Source of the DNA: Vulcanimicrobiaceae bacterium | GTDB taxonomy: Bacteria > Vulcanimicrobiota > Vulcanimicrobiia > Vulcanimicrobiales > Vulcanimicrobiaceae | Length of the DNA stretch: 31,243 nucleotides | Assembly: GCA_046262595.1 (NCBI GenBank) | Contig: JBHEMM010000017.1 | Span: 16,438 to 47,680 of the forward strand | Direction: 5' to 3' | Shown here: piece after piece, positions 6,001 to 12,000 of the stretch | How the letters are laid out: each line of letters opens with the position of its first letter | How positions within the stretch are numbered: the first letter of the stretch is position 1 | Program-made: the position numbers

Positions 6001-9000
6001 TGGGCCATAGAGTAGGGTTGAGGCATTGGGCGCGGAAACCAGGACTTCCGCCTGCTTACACCTCGGAGAATCCCCTCTTGAGCCACAACCCACTCCTCTT
6101 TAGCGGTAATTCGAATCAAGTGCTGGCCGAGGAGATCGCCAAGCGCTTGAAGCTGCACGTGGGCAAGGCGCTGGTTTCGCGCTTTAAAAACGAAGAGACG
6201 CGCGTCCAAATCGGCGAGAACGTGCGCGGCTCGGAAGTGTTCGTCATCCAGTCCATCTGCAAGTCGGCCAACGGCAACGGCGTGAACGACGCAATCATGG
6301 AGCTGCTGCTCATGATCGACGCGCTCAAGCGCGCGTCCGCCTCACGCATCACCGCCGTTGTCCCCTACTACGGATACGCCAAGCAAGATAAGAAAACGAC
6401 CGGCCGCGAGCCTATCTCGGCAAAAGTCTTAGCGGACATGCTGAAAACCGCCGGCGCAAACCGCATGGTCACGATGGATCTCCACGCGGCGCAGATTCAG
6501 GGGTTCTTCGACGGCCCCGTCGATAACCTCATGGCGATGCCGACGCTGTGCAACTATTTAAAGAAGGAAGGCCTTTGCGACGACCGGATCGTGGTCGTTT
6601 CGCCGGATGCGGGCGGCGTTCACCGGGCGGAACTCTTCGCCAAGCGCCTGAACTGCTCACTGGCGATCGTCTTCAAGCGCCGTCCCGAACCCGACGTGTC
6701 CGAGGTGACCGACATCGTGGGCGACGTGAAAGGCAAAATTGCGGTCGTCGTCGATGATATGATTTCGACCGGCGGTACGCTCGCGAAAGCCGCCGAAGCG
6801 ATCATTGCGCGCGGGGCTTCTCAGGTGTACACCGTCGCCTCGCACGGCATCTTTGCCGGCAATGCGATCCGCGTTCTGGACGAATCGCAGATCGAACGCG
6901 TCGTCGTGACGAACACGATTCCGTTCGCCGACGCACTCGAACACCCGAAGTTCGTGCAATTGTCCGTAGCGCAAACGTTCGCCGATGCCATCAACCGCAT
7001 CACCACCAACCGGTCCATCTCCGAACTGTTCACCGAAGATGGCGAAAAAAAAATGAATGAAATACCGCACGCGGTTCCCGAACCTGCGGCGGTTTCTTAA
7101 AAGGAAACGTATGGCCAATCAATTATCGCTCACCATCGAACGCCGCGAGAGCGCGGGCACGGGTAAAGCACGCGCTTTGCGCGGCGCAGGCAAAGTACCC
7201 GGTGTGCTCTACGGGCACGGTTCGAGCGAGGCGATCGCCATCGAACGCCGCGCGCTCGACGAACTGCTGCACCGCGGCGGACGCACGGGTCTTATCCAGC
7301 TCTCACTGGGCGGAAAGAAGCTCGACACCGCGCTCGTGCGCGAAGTGCAGATCGATCCCGTTTCGCGCAAAACGATTCACATCGACTTCCAGCGCGTCTC
7401 CGCCACCGAAATGGTACATGCGCGCCTGCCGCTGACCATGATCGGCGTTCCCGACGGCGTGCGCAACATGGGCGGCGTCATGGATGTGATCGTTCACGAG
7501 ATCGAGGTCGAAGGCCCGGCGAACAAATTGCCCGAGCGGTTGGAAATCGATGTAGAGAATTTAGGCATCCACGAACATGTGAACGCGGGCGACATCAAAC
7601 TGCCTGAGGGCATAAAACTGCTCACGAACCCCGAAGCGACAGTCGTCACCGTCGAGCCTTCGAAGACCGCGCACGCCGTCGAAGAAGCGGCCGCCGGAGC
7701 CGCGGAACAGGCGCAGCCGGAACTGGTCGGCAAGCCGGAAGCAGAAACGAACGCGCCGTAGCTTTTGCAGCCAAAGAGGCCGCAAAGATCGTTTGCGGCC
7801 TCGGAAACCCCGGAAAAGAATACGCGATGACGCGGCACAACGCCGGCTTCATGGCCGTCGACCGCCTGGCGGAGCGCCTGCACATCGAGCAATGGAAAAA
7901 GAAAGACGGCGCGCGGCAGGCGTATGATGCGCAGCGCAAAGTCGCTCTGGTCGAACCGCAAACGTTCATGAATAACAGCGGCGCGCCGCTGCGGATCGTG
8001 GCTTCTTGGTATCGCACGCAGCCCGGTTCGCTGCTCGTGATTTACGACGAGATGGATCTGCCGTTCGGCACGATCCGCATGCGCCCGTTGGGCGGGCATG
8101 GCGGGCATAACGGCATGCGGTCCGTGATCGCCGCCATGACCGGCGACTTTGCGCGCCTCCGCATCGGCGTGGGACGGCCGGTGCGCGAGAGCATCGACCA
8201 CGTGCTCAGTCCATTCACTGCCCCGGAGCGGCGCGATCTTCCGGCCGTGCTGGACGCCGCCGCCGAAACTGCCGTGCGTTGGATCGACTCGGGGCCCGAG
8301 GCCGCGATGCAGTTTGCAAACACCTGGACGTTAGAAATGCCGCAAAACGGTCGATAAGAACGACAAATGGAAGCGTTCGGCGGGAAATCATTCGTTGTGC
8401 GCGTCGACGAAGCCACTGCCTTCGCCGCGAAAACCACGTTTTTCGAGGACCTGGCCATCCTGTGCGCTCAGGGCGTCGCGCCCATCGTTATTGCGCCGTC
8501 CGCGCGTGCCGGGCGCGCACTCGTGCGCACGATCAACCGCAGCGGTAACCGCGCCGTCGGCCTTTCCGGCTCCGATGCCGGGATGCTGCCCGGCACGAAA
8601 TCCGGCATCGCAAACGTTCAAACGGGTATTCTGCAAACGCTCAGCGGCGCCGGCTATATTCCGGTGATCGAGCCGACGGCGTTCATCGCTTTCGGCAAGA
8701 GCGATCTTAGCGTCGCCGCCGATGAAGTCGCGCGCGCTGTCGCCGCGGCGACCGATGCGGTGCGCGCGATCTTTTTTCACGCGCTCGGCGGAGTTGCCGA
8801 TCCGCAGACCGAGGCGCTGATCACCGAGCTCACGCCGGCGGAAGCATTGACAATCGCCGACGACGAGCGCGTTCCCGCAGACCTGCGTACGGCGATTCGC
8901 GCCGCAGCGTTAGGGGTGCGCGGCGGCGTGGCTGCGGCGCAGATCGTCGACGGACGCGTTCCGCACGCCGCCGTCGTGGAGCTGCTCACCGCACACCATC

Positions 9001-12000
9001 TGGGCACGCAGGTCACGGGCGGCGTCTTTACCGGCGCCGCATAGCGCACGCGTCCGCCGCGCCTTGCAGTGCCGAGATGCGCGGGCCGGGCGCCGGGTGC
9101 GGCGTGAGATACCACTTGGCGATCGTGCCGGGACAGGCGCTCAGCAGCGCCTGATCGGCGCGGCGCACCTGCATTCGAATCGCACTGGCCGGATCGTGCG
9201 TGATCGCCAGCGCCTGCTGGTCCACGGCGACGTCGAGGTTGCGTGAATACGCGTTGTAAAACGGCATCACGAGCAGGTACGTCAATCCGATGACCGCGCC
9301 GAGCACCGCGAGACGCGAAACCGGATCGTCGTCGCGCCGGAAGCCGATGCGGTCAGAAACCGCGACGGCAAACGCGGCGCTCACAACGATGAAGGCCGCT
9401 TGAACCAGCGCTAAATGCAGCGCATCGTTCGCCGCGATCCACGCCATCGCGCGCGCGATGACGAAACGCATCTCCGGTTCGCTCTGCCCGGCGAGCATCG
9501 TATCCGAAACCACGATCCGCTGCGAGGCTCCCAACCCGGCAACGTACGCGGTTGCCAGCCGCGTGCGCGAAGCGATGCGCTGCTCGAGCACCGGTGTCCG
9601 TATTCCGGTGCGCATACGCAACGCGGCGACGTCGCCCGAAAGCGTGCGCGTGAGGGCCGCTTCCTGCAGCGGCGGCAGCGCGAACAGCGGCGCCGCGTAC
9701 GCAGCCACCAGGGTAAGCGCCATAATCGCGGCTAGCGTATACAGGTACCACTGATGCGTGCGGTCGGCAAGCCACAAAACGGCGGCCGCCATCAACCCGG
9801 CAGCCAAAATAGCAACGATGGTTCCCAGAACCCATTGCGCAAGCCACGCGCGAAAAAGTTGTTCCGTTAAGCCCATGATCCGCAGAAAGCGGTACTGCAT
9901 CGCCAGTGGGGCCAATGCGACGATCTTGTCGAGAAGCGCGACGCAGGCGCCGAAGTAAAACCGCACCCGAAACTCCGAGCGCATGCGCAGCCGCAACGCG
10001 TCGCGCAGTGCCGCCGAGCCGCCGGAACTCCAGAACCACGCTAGCACGCCGATTTGCAGTGCCGTGACGGCGATCCAAAGCAGCACTTGCGTCTGCTCCA
10101 AATGCGCTGCAGCAGCAGCGCGCGAGGGATCGATCAGATCGAAAGACGGACGGCTCAGCAGCGCGTGTGCGGAAAACGCGCCCACTTCCCGGTCGAGCGC
10201 ATTCGGGCGCGCGAGAACCAATGCCGTCAGTGCCGTCATCGCGGCCTTGTTCGCTATCGGTAAACGGCAAAGCCTTCGCCTGGGGCGGCAAACGAAACGC
10301 AGCCGCGGCCCGAACGCTTGCTGTTGTACATCGCCGCGTCTGCAATTTCGAGTAAGTCGGCGGCGCGCTCCGCATCGCCCGGAAACGCCGCGATACCAAT
10401 GCTTGCCGTAAGACGGAGATCGATTCCGAAATCGTGTTGCGCGACGGCACGGCAAAGGCGCGCCGCGCGCTCGATTGCCGCGATTTTTTGCGCGCCCCGC
10501 AAAATCGCGCAGAACTCGTCGCCGCCGTTTCTCGCCGCCGTATCCACACCGTCGATCGTATGGATCTTTAGGAGTGCAGCCATTGCCTGCAGCACGCGGT
10601 CTCCGGCGGCGTGACCCAGCGAGTCGTTTACGGTTTTGAAGCGATCGGTGTCCACGAACCAGAGCGCGAGCGCCGCGCCGCGCTGTGCGGCGTACTGCAC
10701 GTCTTCCTGCAAGAGGTCGCGAAACGCGCGCGGTGCGTAGAGTCCCGTCAGGGCATCGTAGGTTGCGCGCGCGCGATCCTTCTCGCGCTCCGCCGCCAGC
10801 GCATACGGCGCCGCCGCCTGTTCCGCGGCGCGAACGACGGCCGGCGCGGCGCACAGCGTCTGCTGCATGCTCGAGGCATAAACGACGGCGCAGCAGTTGC
10901 CCGAATCGATCAGCGGTACGGCGAGCGCGCCGCGATCGGAGGGAATCACCGCACCGCCGCCTTCGCCGCGCAGTTCGATGCGGTGCAGAACGCGCGCCGC
11001 GCGTGCGGGCAACGCGAGCGGATCGTCACGCCGCAGGCGGGCGCCGGCGTAATGCTGCGCGCGTGAACCGGCGGCATAAACGCAGTGCAACTCTTCGCCG
11101 CAGGTTGTAAACACGAGCAGCGCGTCCACCGCAGGCTCCAACGTTTTCAAAGAGCACTCGAGCGCGCAGAGCACCGCGCCGCTCGACTCGCGCGACGCCG
11201 CCGTGAACGCGCGAGCGGCTTCGACCAGCGTGCGTTCGCCGCTGCGCACTGTTTCCAATTCCGCTTTCCCGGCGCGCACGCAGGCGCGCAGCCGCGCGAT
11301 GTAGGCGCCGGCGCACAAACAGAGAAGCGCAACCGTCGGCAGCATCCACAACACCGGAGGAGCAGTACCCATCGGCGGCATCCAGCGGCCAACGCAGCTT
11401 TCGCAAGCGGCTATCGAAGCGAACCGCTTGGGCGTCGCTTTGCGCGCTCAAGGCCGTCTGGACGAAGCCGCGCAGGCGTTTACCTTGGGCTTGGAAGCGC
11501 AAGATGACGTTGCGGAGCTGCGTTTGAACTTGGCGGCGACGCTCACCCAGCTGGAGCAATACGACCAGGCACGGACGGAATATGCCAAGGTGCTGGCGAT
11601 GCGCCCTAGCGATGCTTGCGCGCACTGGGCTCTTTACGAGCTCGAGCAAGTCGCCGGCAACCGCAAGAGCGCGCTGGCGCATCAAAGCGCCGTCCTCGAT
11701 CAGCAGACGATCTTCACCGTTCAAGCGCCGCGCGAGCGGCGGCGTTTAATCGCGCTCATGGCGCCGGGTGATTGGCAGGCGAACGTTCCGGTGGATTATC
11801 TGGTCGACGCGCAGACGACCACGCTGCATAAAGTGTACCTCACCGCGGGCGAGCGGGCCTCGCCGGCGCTGCCGCCGGCCGACGCGATCTTCACCGCAAT
11901 AGCATACTCGCCGCAAAACGCCGGCGCCCTTGCGCGCGCGCGCGATATCGTCCAGCGCTCGCAACTTCCGGTCATCAACGATCCCTCAAGTGTCGCGCGT

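Follow-up and report, generated by a model that had tools for sequence, protein, structure and literature searches.

The closest described systems are the N-acetylglutamate kinases (NAGKs) of hexameric type and the domains derived from them. The NAGK roles of K8, K217, D162, N158, R66 and the lid are used here as given in the accessible part of PMC2851564, and the arginine motif E-(L/I)-(F/M)-(T/S)-x-x-G-x-G-T is taken from that of PMC4490483. The latter text describes the AAK domain of classical NAGS (ArgA) as derived from NAGK and serving architecture and regulation instead of catalysis; the domain is fused to GNAT, forms an N-helix hexamer and uses the full motif to bind arginine. E. coli NAGK (1gs5) is an active dimer without N-helix, judging from the accessible parts of PMC4490483 and PMC10464499, and without the Glu motif, like the true argB product of the class studied here.

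The gene analyzed here lies in a stretch of 31,243 nucleotides from a Vulcanimicrobiaceae bacterium (the window; Table 1) and encodes a NAGK homologue that we call pseudo-NAGK. Its product matches PF00696 at 34.1 bits and TIGR00761 at 57.2 bits, under the curated cut-off of 151.3, and the closest solved structures are the hexameric NAGKs 2buf and 2bty. An AlphaFold model that used 140 sequences reached a pLDDT of 94.4 (65.6 with only 53 close sequences) and aligned with 2bty over 218 residues (Z 29.2, rmsd 1.9 Å), while its alignment with 2buf begins at residue 22 of the latter. Comparison with the enzymes of T. maritima (2bty), P. aeruginosa (2buf), S. elongatus (2jj4) and M. tuberculosis (7nln) gave Z scores of 28-29 and rmsd values of 1.6-2.1 Å at about 30% identity, with a common N-lobe dimer surface and a common GR-x-x-H-A and E-x-x-T-x-x-x-x-G-T end; the NAGS domain (N. 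gonorrhoeae 2r8v, 3d2p) gave a Z of 24.9. Unlike the hexameric NAGKs, pseudo-NAGK lacks the catalytic lysines, the glycine loops and the NAG lid and is unlinked to arg genes and PII. Unlike the NAGS domain it stands alone. It differs from the dimeric NAGKs too: its sequence indicates inactivity, its origin is in the hexameric type, and the argB of its class is not its sister. No paper on this family was found in the literature searched, whose coverage excluded subscription journals.

Table 1. Features of the pseudo-NAGK locus (positions within the window)
Feature	Position	Strand	Remarks
prs (PRPP synthase)	6078..7100	+	conserved context; approximate start
rplY (bL25/Ctc)	7111..7761	+	conserved context
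pth (peptidyl-tRNA hydrolase)	7788..8357	+	upstream neighbour; likely start ATC at 7788
Candidate -35 CGTTAG	8329..8334	+	TTAG 15 nt ahead of -10; 2/4 to TAAA; family consensus CGTTAT
Candidate sigma28/WhiG-type -10 box GTCGATAA	8350..8357	+	7/8 to GCCGATAA; 9 nt ahead of ATG
Pseudo-NAGK gene	8367..9044	+	225 aa, AAK fold (modelled), without N-helix and substrate lid
R12-V-D14-E15	8400..8411	+	occupies site of catalytic K-x-G-G loop; R in 83/85; no Gly
A43-P-S-A46 junction	8493..8504	+	stands where HGGG and ~37 NAG-lid residues were
Predicted homodimer interface 50-72, 85-97, 106-113	8514..8705 (residues 50-113)	+	score 0.67
R133	8763..8765	+	at arginine-site Lys position; R in 85/85; R in 4/42 active NAGKs
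D172-L-R-T-A176	8880..8894	+	at GMxPK site; second catalytic Lys (K217) missing in 85/85
E205-L-L-T-A-H-H211-L-G-T214	8979..9008	+	former arginine loop, first Gly replaced by His
M48 peptidase gene	9028..10239	-	convergent, downstream of pseudo-NAGK

Every catalytic motif is missing in all 85 members of an alignment that comprised 62 sequences of f1 (the family of the window genome), 4 of f2 and 19 of the sister family f3, set against 42 active and 10 other dead NAGKs. The aligned catalytic Lys site (E. coli K8) holds Arg, Ser or Thr in 85/85 members, with no Gly pair, versus K-x-G-G in 42/42 active enzymes; the columns of the HGGG loop and NAG lid, including the substrate Arg, are empty, and the Asn preceding the D162 position is gone in nearly all members. 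This agrees with the replacement of KYGG, HGGG and GMxPK claimed in an earlier note on this DNA. The missing segment which that note also reported is real, but it amounts to about 37 rather than about 50 residues, as 12-14 residues are left between fixed anchors versus 48-50 in NAGK. To judge from these alignments, pseudo-NAGK almost certainly has no NAGK activity. The old cleft has family-specific invariants of its own, R12 (83/85), D/E14 and T24 (84/85), and the nucleotide-loop G142 is kept, as might be expected of a new enzyme in which the R12/D14 pair and the opened cleft catalyze another reaction, or of a novel mode of nucleotide binding. Yet nothing remains of the glycine loops, the two lysines, the T/S-D pair or G-M-x-P-K, the D162 position is Asp in 59/62 f1 and 4/4 f2 members but in just 8/19 of f3, and no fold or family outscored NAGK in the structure and family comparisons, so that we consider a new activity of this kind quite unlikely.

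Pseudo-NAGK was found in 184 of the 332 genomes sampled from one class of Vulcanimicrobiota (Eremiobacterota), whose members are widespread and abundant in soil, and in none of 69 genomes outside it. In a quick tree the family forms a single clade (SH-aLRT 100) separate from the true argB of the class, and vertical inheritance of a stand-alone gene within the class is the best reading. The gene is under purifying selection, with dN/dS of 0.03-0.17 across nine pairs. At least nine independent losses in f1 and a copy split over two frames in one genome (G036) could suggest a decaying argB pseudogene or a mis-called ORF, but this is effectively refuted by the dN/dS values, by precise deletions common to three families at 36-80% identity, by the confident model and by a frame that is open among the matches listed except for two with an upstream TAG. 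With the catalytic motifs lost throughout, selection maintained and a single clade, the gene is a conserved pseudoenzyme, as had been proposed.

The fold of pseudo-NAGK is modelled, and so is its homodimer, which was predicted with a score of 0.67 versus 0.00 for the best of three controls; the runs share at least 92% of contacts with pLDDT of at least 85, and of 30 known pairs 20 reached the mark for this score, as did 1 of 23 single chains. The homodimer pass may reflect likeness, because NAGK dimers are already solved. No hexamer is expected since the N-helix is absent.

The arginine-binding end had been described as kept. This is true of E205, the key Glu of the last helix, and of T208, G213 and T214, each present in 85/85 members, but not of the first motif Gly, which is His in 82/85 (95/99 in a set of 76 f1, 19 f3 and 4 f2 loci), nor of the N-helix. 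An EALPY-like N-helix signature appeared at 0/99 loci; the helix is deleted in f1 and f2, and in f3 an LPTAK-like remnant persists in 11/19 members with Thr or Ala in place of the aromatic residue. Leu occupies the F/M position of the motif, and the conserved His ahead of IIDG has become Gln or Glu. An arginine sensor, that is, a dead kinase whose C-terminal loop still binds L-arginine and which signals this to a partner, much as the AAK domain does in classical NAGS, would be in keeping with the invariant Glu, Thr and Gly-Thr residues, with the f3 remnant and with R133, as some active NAGKs also have Arg there; the accessible part of PMC10464499 lists an Arg, R209, at the arginine site of Corynebacterium NAGK, at what may be the equivalent position. 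Such a sensor would serve arginine auxotrophs too. However, the lost helix and aromatic residue speak against it, as does the His, because the Gly in question is retained by 40/42 active hexamer-type NAGKs and 10/10 unrelated dead ones, and in NAGS and NAGS-K its change to Pro (not His), or that of the N-helix aromatic to Cys, abolished or weakened the arginine response according to the accessible part of PMC2566978. Nor does the presence of the gene track arginine synthesis. The likely sensing role assigned to it earlier is poorly supported: pseudo-NAGK is probably not a canonical arginine sensor, and we regard the arginine-relay account as unlikely. As the Glu and a basic Arg are kept in 85/85 members, a pocket survives; it looks re-specified at the sequence level, and it would presumably still bind something.

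Other short dead NAGK-like proteins (P0142, P0164, P0183, P0197, P0205, P0209, P0211, P0218, P0234 and P0242) have also lost the catalytic motifs and show a near-identical lid deletion, with a median of 13 residues left. In the tree they branch apart from the pseudo-NAGK family, at three or more points, and 10/10 keep the N-helix LP-Y/F and the motif Gly; judged by these residues, the arginine-sensor idea suits them better than the pseudo-NAGK family. Two further proteins of this kind, P0165 and P0250, are fused to ArgJ.

Whether pseudo-NAGK is present does not depend on true argB, argG or PII. Among 208 genomes of the class, each at least 90% complete, 65 have both the gene and argB, 37 the gene only, 64 argB only and 42 neither. 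The reported absence of argG from the window genome (89.7% complete) stands, and neither argJ nor an argB over the cut-off was found there. argG was detected in 0/16 f3 genomes, 11 of which carry pseudo-NAGK. A regulatory subunit of the arginine pathway, pairing with a short arginine-insensitive ArgB, a short NAGS or PII, would be useful in a class whose true argB has neither N-helix nor arginine motif, and could rely on the NAGK dimer surface that the model retains. We nevertheless hold it to be very improbable: argB is missing from 37 of 102 carriers, 64 of 129 argB genomes have no pseudo-NAGK, argB above cut-off occurs in 0/30 f3 genomes and PII in only 2/56 genomes. As weak evidence, no GNAT fusion was seen among the longer proteins, where the single hit is a read-through. 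The window ORF stands alone with its stop at 9044. A PII partner was rejected on the PII count, and a helper for true ArgB for want of co-occurrence in the 208 genomes.

The earlier placement of the gene behind prs-rplY-pth holds for most loci, as 78/99 have it no more than 700 nt from pth. In 12/99 distinct loci a divergent ECF-sigma/ABC cassette is found directly upstream in place of pth, and the two genes are therefore linked by synteny, not by an obligatory operon. The uvrB, M48 and GGDEF genes are likewise syntenic, which indicates that gene order is generally conservative here. A partner of Prs, bL25 or Pth, for instance an allosteric or scaffold subunit in PRPP supply or ribosome rescue, would account for this proximity across the class. 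It is improbable, however, in view of the divergent cassette, the synteny of the other genes, a promoter-like motif of its own and the nine or more losses in which prs-rplY-pth remain intact. The M48 gene abuts pth in genomes where pseudo-NAGK is lost. No ATG, GTG or TTG precedes the conserved N-terminal motif of pth. A fusion to pth was rejected because in relatives, unlike in the window, the two genes are in different frames; the lone longer match, P0271, is without the C-terminal motif, enters an unrelated ORF and was read as a frameshift. For f3, a Pfam search with the small ORF that separates pth from pseudo-NAGK, whose coordinates may be off, returned no family.

Regulons of sigma28/FliA/WhiG are characterized, in the accessible parts of PMC2859248 and PMC8325347, by a -10 box G(C/T)CGATA(A/C), 15 nt to a T-x-A -35, and a cognate sigma, the consensus being GCCGATAA with TAAA at 15 nt. 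The region ahead of pseudo-NAGK resembles them except for its -35, CGTTA(T/G) instead of TAAA, so that the window site has 3 mismatches versus the 2 allowed in PMC8325347. The strict -10 motif lies just upstream in 32/76 f1, 13/19 f3 and 1/4 f2 loci (chance level about 2%, from shuffled and random windows), including loci where the ECF cassette parts the gene from pth. In many f3 loci the last codons of the upstream ORF, Arg-Arg-stop, overlap it, and in the window genome its TAA doubles as the pth stop; given its closeness to the ATG, a near-leaderless transcript would be produced. Of the 2288 genes called in the window genome, 53 are preceded by the motif at up to 130 nt, compared with 36 antisense, a mild strand bias. 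Flagellin (with canonical TAAA-N15), fliA/whiG, fliF, flhB, a motA-family gene and a PilZ gene are among them; several flagellar genes have no TAAA -35 either, and the motif precedes non-flagellar genes as well. A cognate sigma is encoded (TIGR02479, 252.6 bits, cut-off 189.6). No sigma70 promoter was found within 5900-9400. The upstream motif may be a working promoter, and the chances that pseudo-NAGK belongs to a sigma28 programme appear evenly balanced to us. No protein of AAK fold emerged as part of such a regulon in the literature searched.

In f1 the gene is co-lost with flagella: it is present in 62/65 flagellated versus 17/50 non-flagellated genomes, counts that overstate the association because the sample was hand-picked by carrier status and the genomes are related. 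Exceptions exist in both directions, with 17/79 f1 carriers without flagella and three flagellated f1 genomes without the gene. A relaxed motif lies upstream in 25/41 flagellated versus 4/15 non-flagellated carriers and is missing in 16/41 flagellated carriers and 3/3 f2. In f3 flagellin was found in 0/15 genomes, yet 10/15 carry pseudo-NAGK, mostly with the motif. FliA/WhiG itself, over the cut-off in 71/80 genomes, is near-universal and does not discriminate, and CheB was only a partial correlate (f1, 30/36 carriers vs 8/26; f3, 7/10 vs 4/5). Together the candidate promoter and the losses point towards motility instead of arginine control.

The account that we favor, tentatively and with slightly less than even confidence, is that pseudo-NAGK is a non-catalytic dimeric binding module for a new ligand or partner, expressed from a sigma28/WhiG-type promoter and serving motility or lifestyle rather than arginine control. 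Its ancestor would have been a hexameric, arginine-inhibited NAGK that lost catalysis first and hexamer formation next, as the N-helix was degraded in f3 and deleted in f1 and f2, with a homodimer persisting through the N-lobe. Re-specification, not erosion, would describe what became of the arginine face, where Glu205 and Thr208 are unchanged and Lys has become Arg133, His Gln/Glu192, Gly His211 and Met Gln/Arg215. A second family-specific patch, on the C-lobe, comprises E154, T156, E159, L161 and R185. The dead dimer would then bind a novel small ligand or a protein partner and be made from its own promoter within a motility or lifestyle programme. A more specific version, which we put forward as rather doubtful, is that the pocket formed by Arg133, Gln192, Glu205, His211 and Gln215 has evolved into a receptor for another metabolite or a partner peptide, through which a dimer of the sigma28/WhiG regulon couples metabolic state to flagellar motility or to a pilus/lifestyle switch.

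Pseudo-NAGK appears to stand one step beyond the NAGS domains, with catalysis and the canonical arginine site both lost and selection still strong. The three families show the steps, an N-helix remnant and then its deletion, and offer a clean case of passage from enzyme to pseudoenzyme. The database label "acetylglutamate kinase" wrongly implies arginine synthesis in genomes like that of the window, and the recurrent lid deletion in other lineages, which retain the arginine site, suggests that pseudo-NAGKs make up a wider, unrecognized class. If true, the receptor reading would make the amino-acid-kinase fold a stand-alone signalling protein outside amino-acid metabolism.

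The pseudo-NAGK, the protein encoded by the N-acetylglutamate kinase (NAGK) homologue behind pth, scored 34.1 bits against PF00696 in a Pfam search and 57.2 bits against TIGR00761 (argB), under the cut-off of 151.3, and sequence comparison gave the hexameric NAGKs 2buf, 2bty and 2jj4 as its top solved relatives. Its AlphaFold model (140-sequence alignment, pLDDT 94.4) superposed on 2bty with Z 29.2 and an rmsd of 1.9 Å over 218 residues, and on residues 22-297 of 2buf. Judged by protein names, its relatives belong to Vulcanimicrobiota/Eremiobacterota. In a quick tree of 119 rows, in which argB and the window's own family (f1) were subsampled, the pseudo-NAGKs formed a single clade (support 100) separate from the true argB of the class, which is of a short type without N-terminal helix or arginine motif. 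Since dN/dS was 0.03-0.17 in nine pairs (ten were planned and one was left out for unequal length), the gene encodes a maintained protein, and the alternative that it is a pseudogene retains next to no probability. A separate case is the single-contig, non-flagellated genome G036, where the gene lies in two frames (loci L053/L073), either a pseudogene or an assembly error.

Features of the window, related loci and related proteins
Feature	Position or identifier	Strand	Remarks
pseudo-NAGK gene	8367-9044	+	225 aa; directly after prs, rplY, pth; convergent with M48 peptidase gene
sigma28-type -10 motif	8350-8357	+	15 nt after TTAG, 9 nt before ATG
pth start region	7759-7830		rplY stop to pth start; ATC at 7788 behind AAGAGG
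409-aa ORF	16673-17902	+	no Pfam family
two tandem pro-kumamolisin-type protease genes	18073-21967	+	after 409-aa ORF
four-gene cassette (other loci)	L001 2580-6000, L002 1850-5280		also L003, L004, L006
other dead NAGK-like proteins	P0142, P0164, P0183, P0197, P0205, P0209, P0211, P0218, P0234, P0242, P0165, P0250		

Residues were tallied in 85 aligned members (62 from f1, and 4 and 19 from f2 and the sister family f3 of the same class) and in 42 active hexamer-type NAGKs, the roles of the catalytic residues being those described in PMC2851564. Arg occupies the K8 position in 83 of the 85, the two Gly that follow it are never Gly, and the Lys of GMxPK is missing. The HGGG and lid stretch measures 12-14 residues vs 48-50 in active NAGKs, and the D162 position is still Asp in 59/62 f1, 4/4 f2 and 8/19 f3 proteins. 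This alignment bore out the catalytic-motif changes described in the earlier note; the missing segment is likewise real, with a size of about 37 residues, not the 50 or so first estimated. The family does not belong with the active NAGKs, and its being a new enzyme is unlikely.

The arginine site of NAGK lies between the N-terminal helix and the loop E-(L/I)-(F/M)-(T/S)-x-x-G-x-G-T, with a Lys and a Glu as key residues (PMC4490483). The earlier claim that the C-terminal arginine end is kept holds for the Glu, the Thr and the terminal G-T (85/85) and fails for the Lys, which is Arg in 85/85, and for the first Gly of the loop, which is His in 82/85 but Gly in 40/42 active NAGKs. Nearly all 85 proteins have Gln or Glu in place of the His that precedes IIDG. 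An EALPY-like helix was found ahead of the gene in 0 of 99 distinct loci: f1 and f2 proteins begin downstream of its position, and f3 shows an LPTAK-like remnant in 11/19, in which Thr or Ala replaces the aromatic residue. We take the P. aeruginosa NAGK labels of arginine-site residues to be G290, K213 and Y21. Labels H271 and E284 of the same protein appear in PMC10464499. In NAGS and NAGS-K, both Gly-to-Pro at Glu+6 and Phe-to-Cys in the N-terminal helix abolished or weakened the arginine response, and His was not among the substitutions made there (PMC2566978). The pseudo-NAGKs fall outside the arginine-site class and, by these residues, the family is not among the dead NAGKs that retain that site. 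Because the substitutions are invariant, they suggest a new pocket specificity rather than decay. With the first Gly replaced and the helix lost or reduced to a remnant, the arginine sensor previously proposed is unlikely.

A representative search returned twelve other short dead NAGK-like proteins with a nearly identical lid deletion. Since they keep the helix motif and, in 10 of 10 tallied, the motif Gly, dead NAGKs with an intact arginine site do exist. Two of them (P0165, P0250) are fused behind ArgJ; one cluster of such proteins is mostly from Myxococcota. They sit in at least three further places of the quick tree, and these lineages, several of them independent, are on sequence grounds good candidates for true arginine-sensing pseudo-NAGKs.

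Two copies of the pseudo-NAGK modelled together gave a dimer score of 0.67 (best of three controls, 0.00) and so passed a mark that 20 of 30 known pairs, but just 1 of 23 single chains, attained; the runs had at least 92% of contacts in common and pLDDT of at least 85. The modelled interface comprises residues 50-72, 85-97 and 106-113, on the N-lobe surface, and because NAGK dimers use this same surface, resemblance to solved structures may explain the pass. Such an interface would account for the conserved N57, A63, G68, A71 and L92. Conserved surfaces beyond it are R12/D14/T24, the old arginine face and E154-L161/R185.

A profile search covered 401 genomes of the phylum, with seven candidates scored per genome and a strong match set at E <=1e-23. 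Strong pseudo-NAGK matches, read from the match table, occurred in 184 of 332 genomes of the window's class and in 0 of 69 outside it (best 1.4e-16). Ten non-carriers rechecked over all candidates held argB-level matches or none, and in several an M48 gene abuts pth. In the 208 class genomes with a completeness of 90% or more, argB was present in 65 carriers and missing from 37; of the non-carriers, 64 had it and 42 did not. In f3, argB passed the cut-off in 0/30 genomes and argG was found in 0/16; argB, argG and argJ were not found in the window's genome (89.7% complete). Carriers thus occurring with and without argB, a helper of ArgB is very improbable. PII (PF00543 match at 1e-10) was present in 2 of 56 class genomes, and the canonical protein seems largely missing from the class. 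These distribution tallies include genomes flagged as unpublished (G246, G248, G328, G238, G231, G276, G233, G178, G128, G264, G329, G344, G359, G213, G391), and no claim hangs on them alone.

In 78 of 99 loci the pseudo-NAGK gene had pth within 700 nt. Another 12 had, upstream in its place, the divergent ECF-sigma gene of a cassette with ABC genes, and the remaining nine were placed in neither class. A partner of Prs, bL25 or Pth, on which this linkage and its exceptions bear, is quite unlikely. In some genomes a 3.4-kb opposite-strand cassette (ECF sigma, unnamed protein, ABC ATPase, ABC-2 permease) stands between pth and the gene. In f2 and f3 the stretch of about 250 nt between the two (L054-L072) holds a short ORF for a membrane protein, presumably DUF2905-like, that carries the motif LG-x-LPGD; a Pfam scan gave it no family. 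Throughout the class pth itself seems to use non-canonical start codons: 69 of 89 loci have no ATG/GTG/TTG at or ahead of its conserved N-terminal motif. The spacer from the rplY stop was 3n+2 in 58 loci (two mis-anchored), often with an ATA-G/A overlap with that stop, 3n in 26, often with CTG a few codons past GGAG, and 3n+1 in 5. Conserved weak initiation, or readthrough or frameshifting to a bL25-Pth fusion, is possible; the literature search listed nothing on non-canonical pth starts.

Just upstream of the pseudo-NAGK gene, the motif G(C/T/A)CGATA(A/C/G) was located in 32/76 f1, 13/19 f3 and 1/4 f2 loci, and in about 2% of shuffled or random windows. It fits the -10 box of sigma28, whose consensus is given as TAAAGTTT-n11-GCCGATAA in PMC2859248 and PMC8325347, and the window's genome encodes a FliA/WhiG sigma. 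By a rough custom gene caller, the motif lay within 130 nt upstream of 53 of 2288 genes of this genome (antisense, 36). These included flagellin, with a canonical TAAA-N15 site, fliA/whiG, fliF, flhB, a motA-family gene, a PilZ gene, flgB and flgC (the last two named by eye), and also unrelated genes. Two features of the pseudo-NAGK gene speak against a sigma28 promoter: its -35 element is non-canonical, and in the window, as in many f3 loci, a stop codon overlaps the -10 box. In the window's genome (e.g. contigs C24, C5, C46, C29) the box often stands 15-19 nt before the start codon; the 10-19 nt bin held 10 upstream matches vs 2 antisense, mostly without a TAAA -35, a spacing that suggests leaderless transcripts.

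In f1 the gene was present in 62 of 65 flagellated genomes (flagellin or FliF match) vs 17 of 50 non-flagellated ones; that the genomes are related and the samples were picked by carrier status weakens this link. On a bL25+Pth tree 15 non-carriers imply at least nine separate losses, and 9 of the 12 f1 non-carriers there are without flagella. A relaxed motif preceded the gene in 25/41 flagellated carriers vs 4/15 non-flagellated carriers. Also against it, the f3 genomes mostly retain gene and motif despite flagellin in 0 of 15; all 15 encode at least one FliA/WhiG-type sigma. Actinobacteria without flagella use WhiG-type sigmas to control pili or sporulation (PMC8325347), and by analogy such control could reconcile f3 with a sigma28 reading.

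The literature search, whose listings covered non-subscription sources, gave no paper on this family. The pseudo-NAGK falls outside the NAGS class and resembles the non-catalytic AAK domain of NAGS as a possible scaffold or sensor. With something short of even confidence, we favour a non-catalytic homodimer of NAGK fold whose former arginine pocket would be re-specified to bind a ligand or partner, and whose expression from a sigma28-type promoter would place it in a motility or lifestyle programme.
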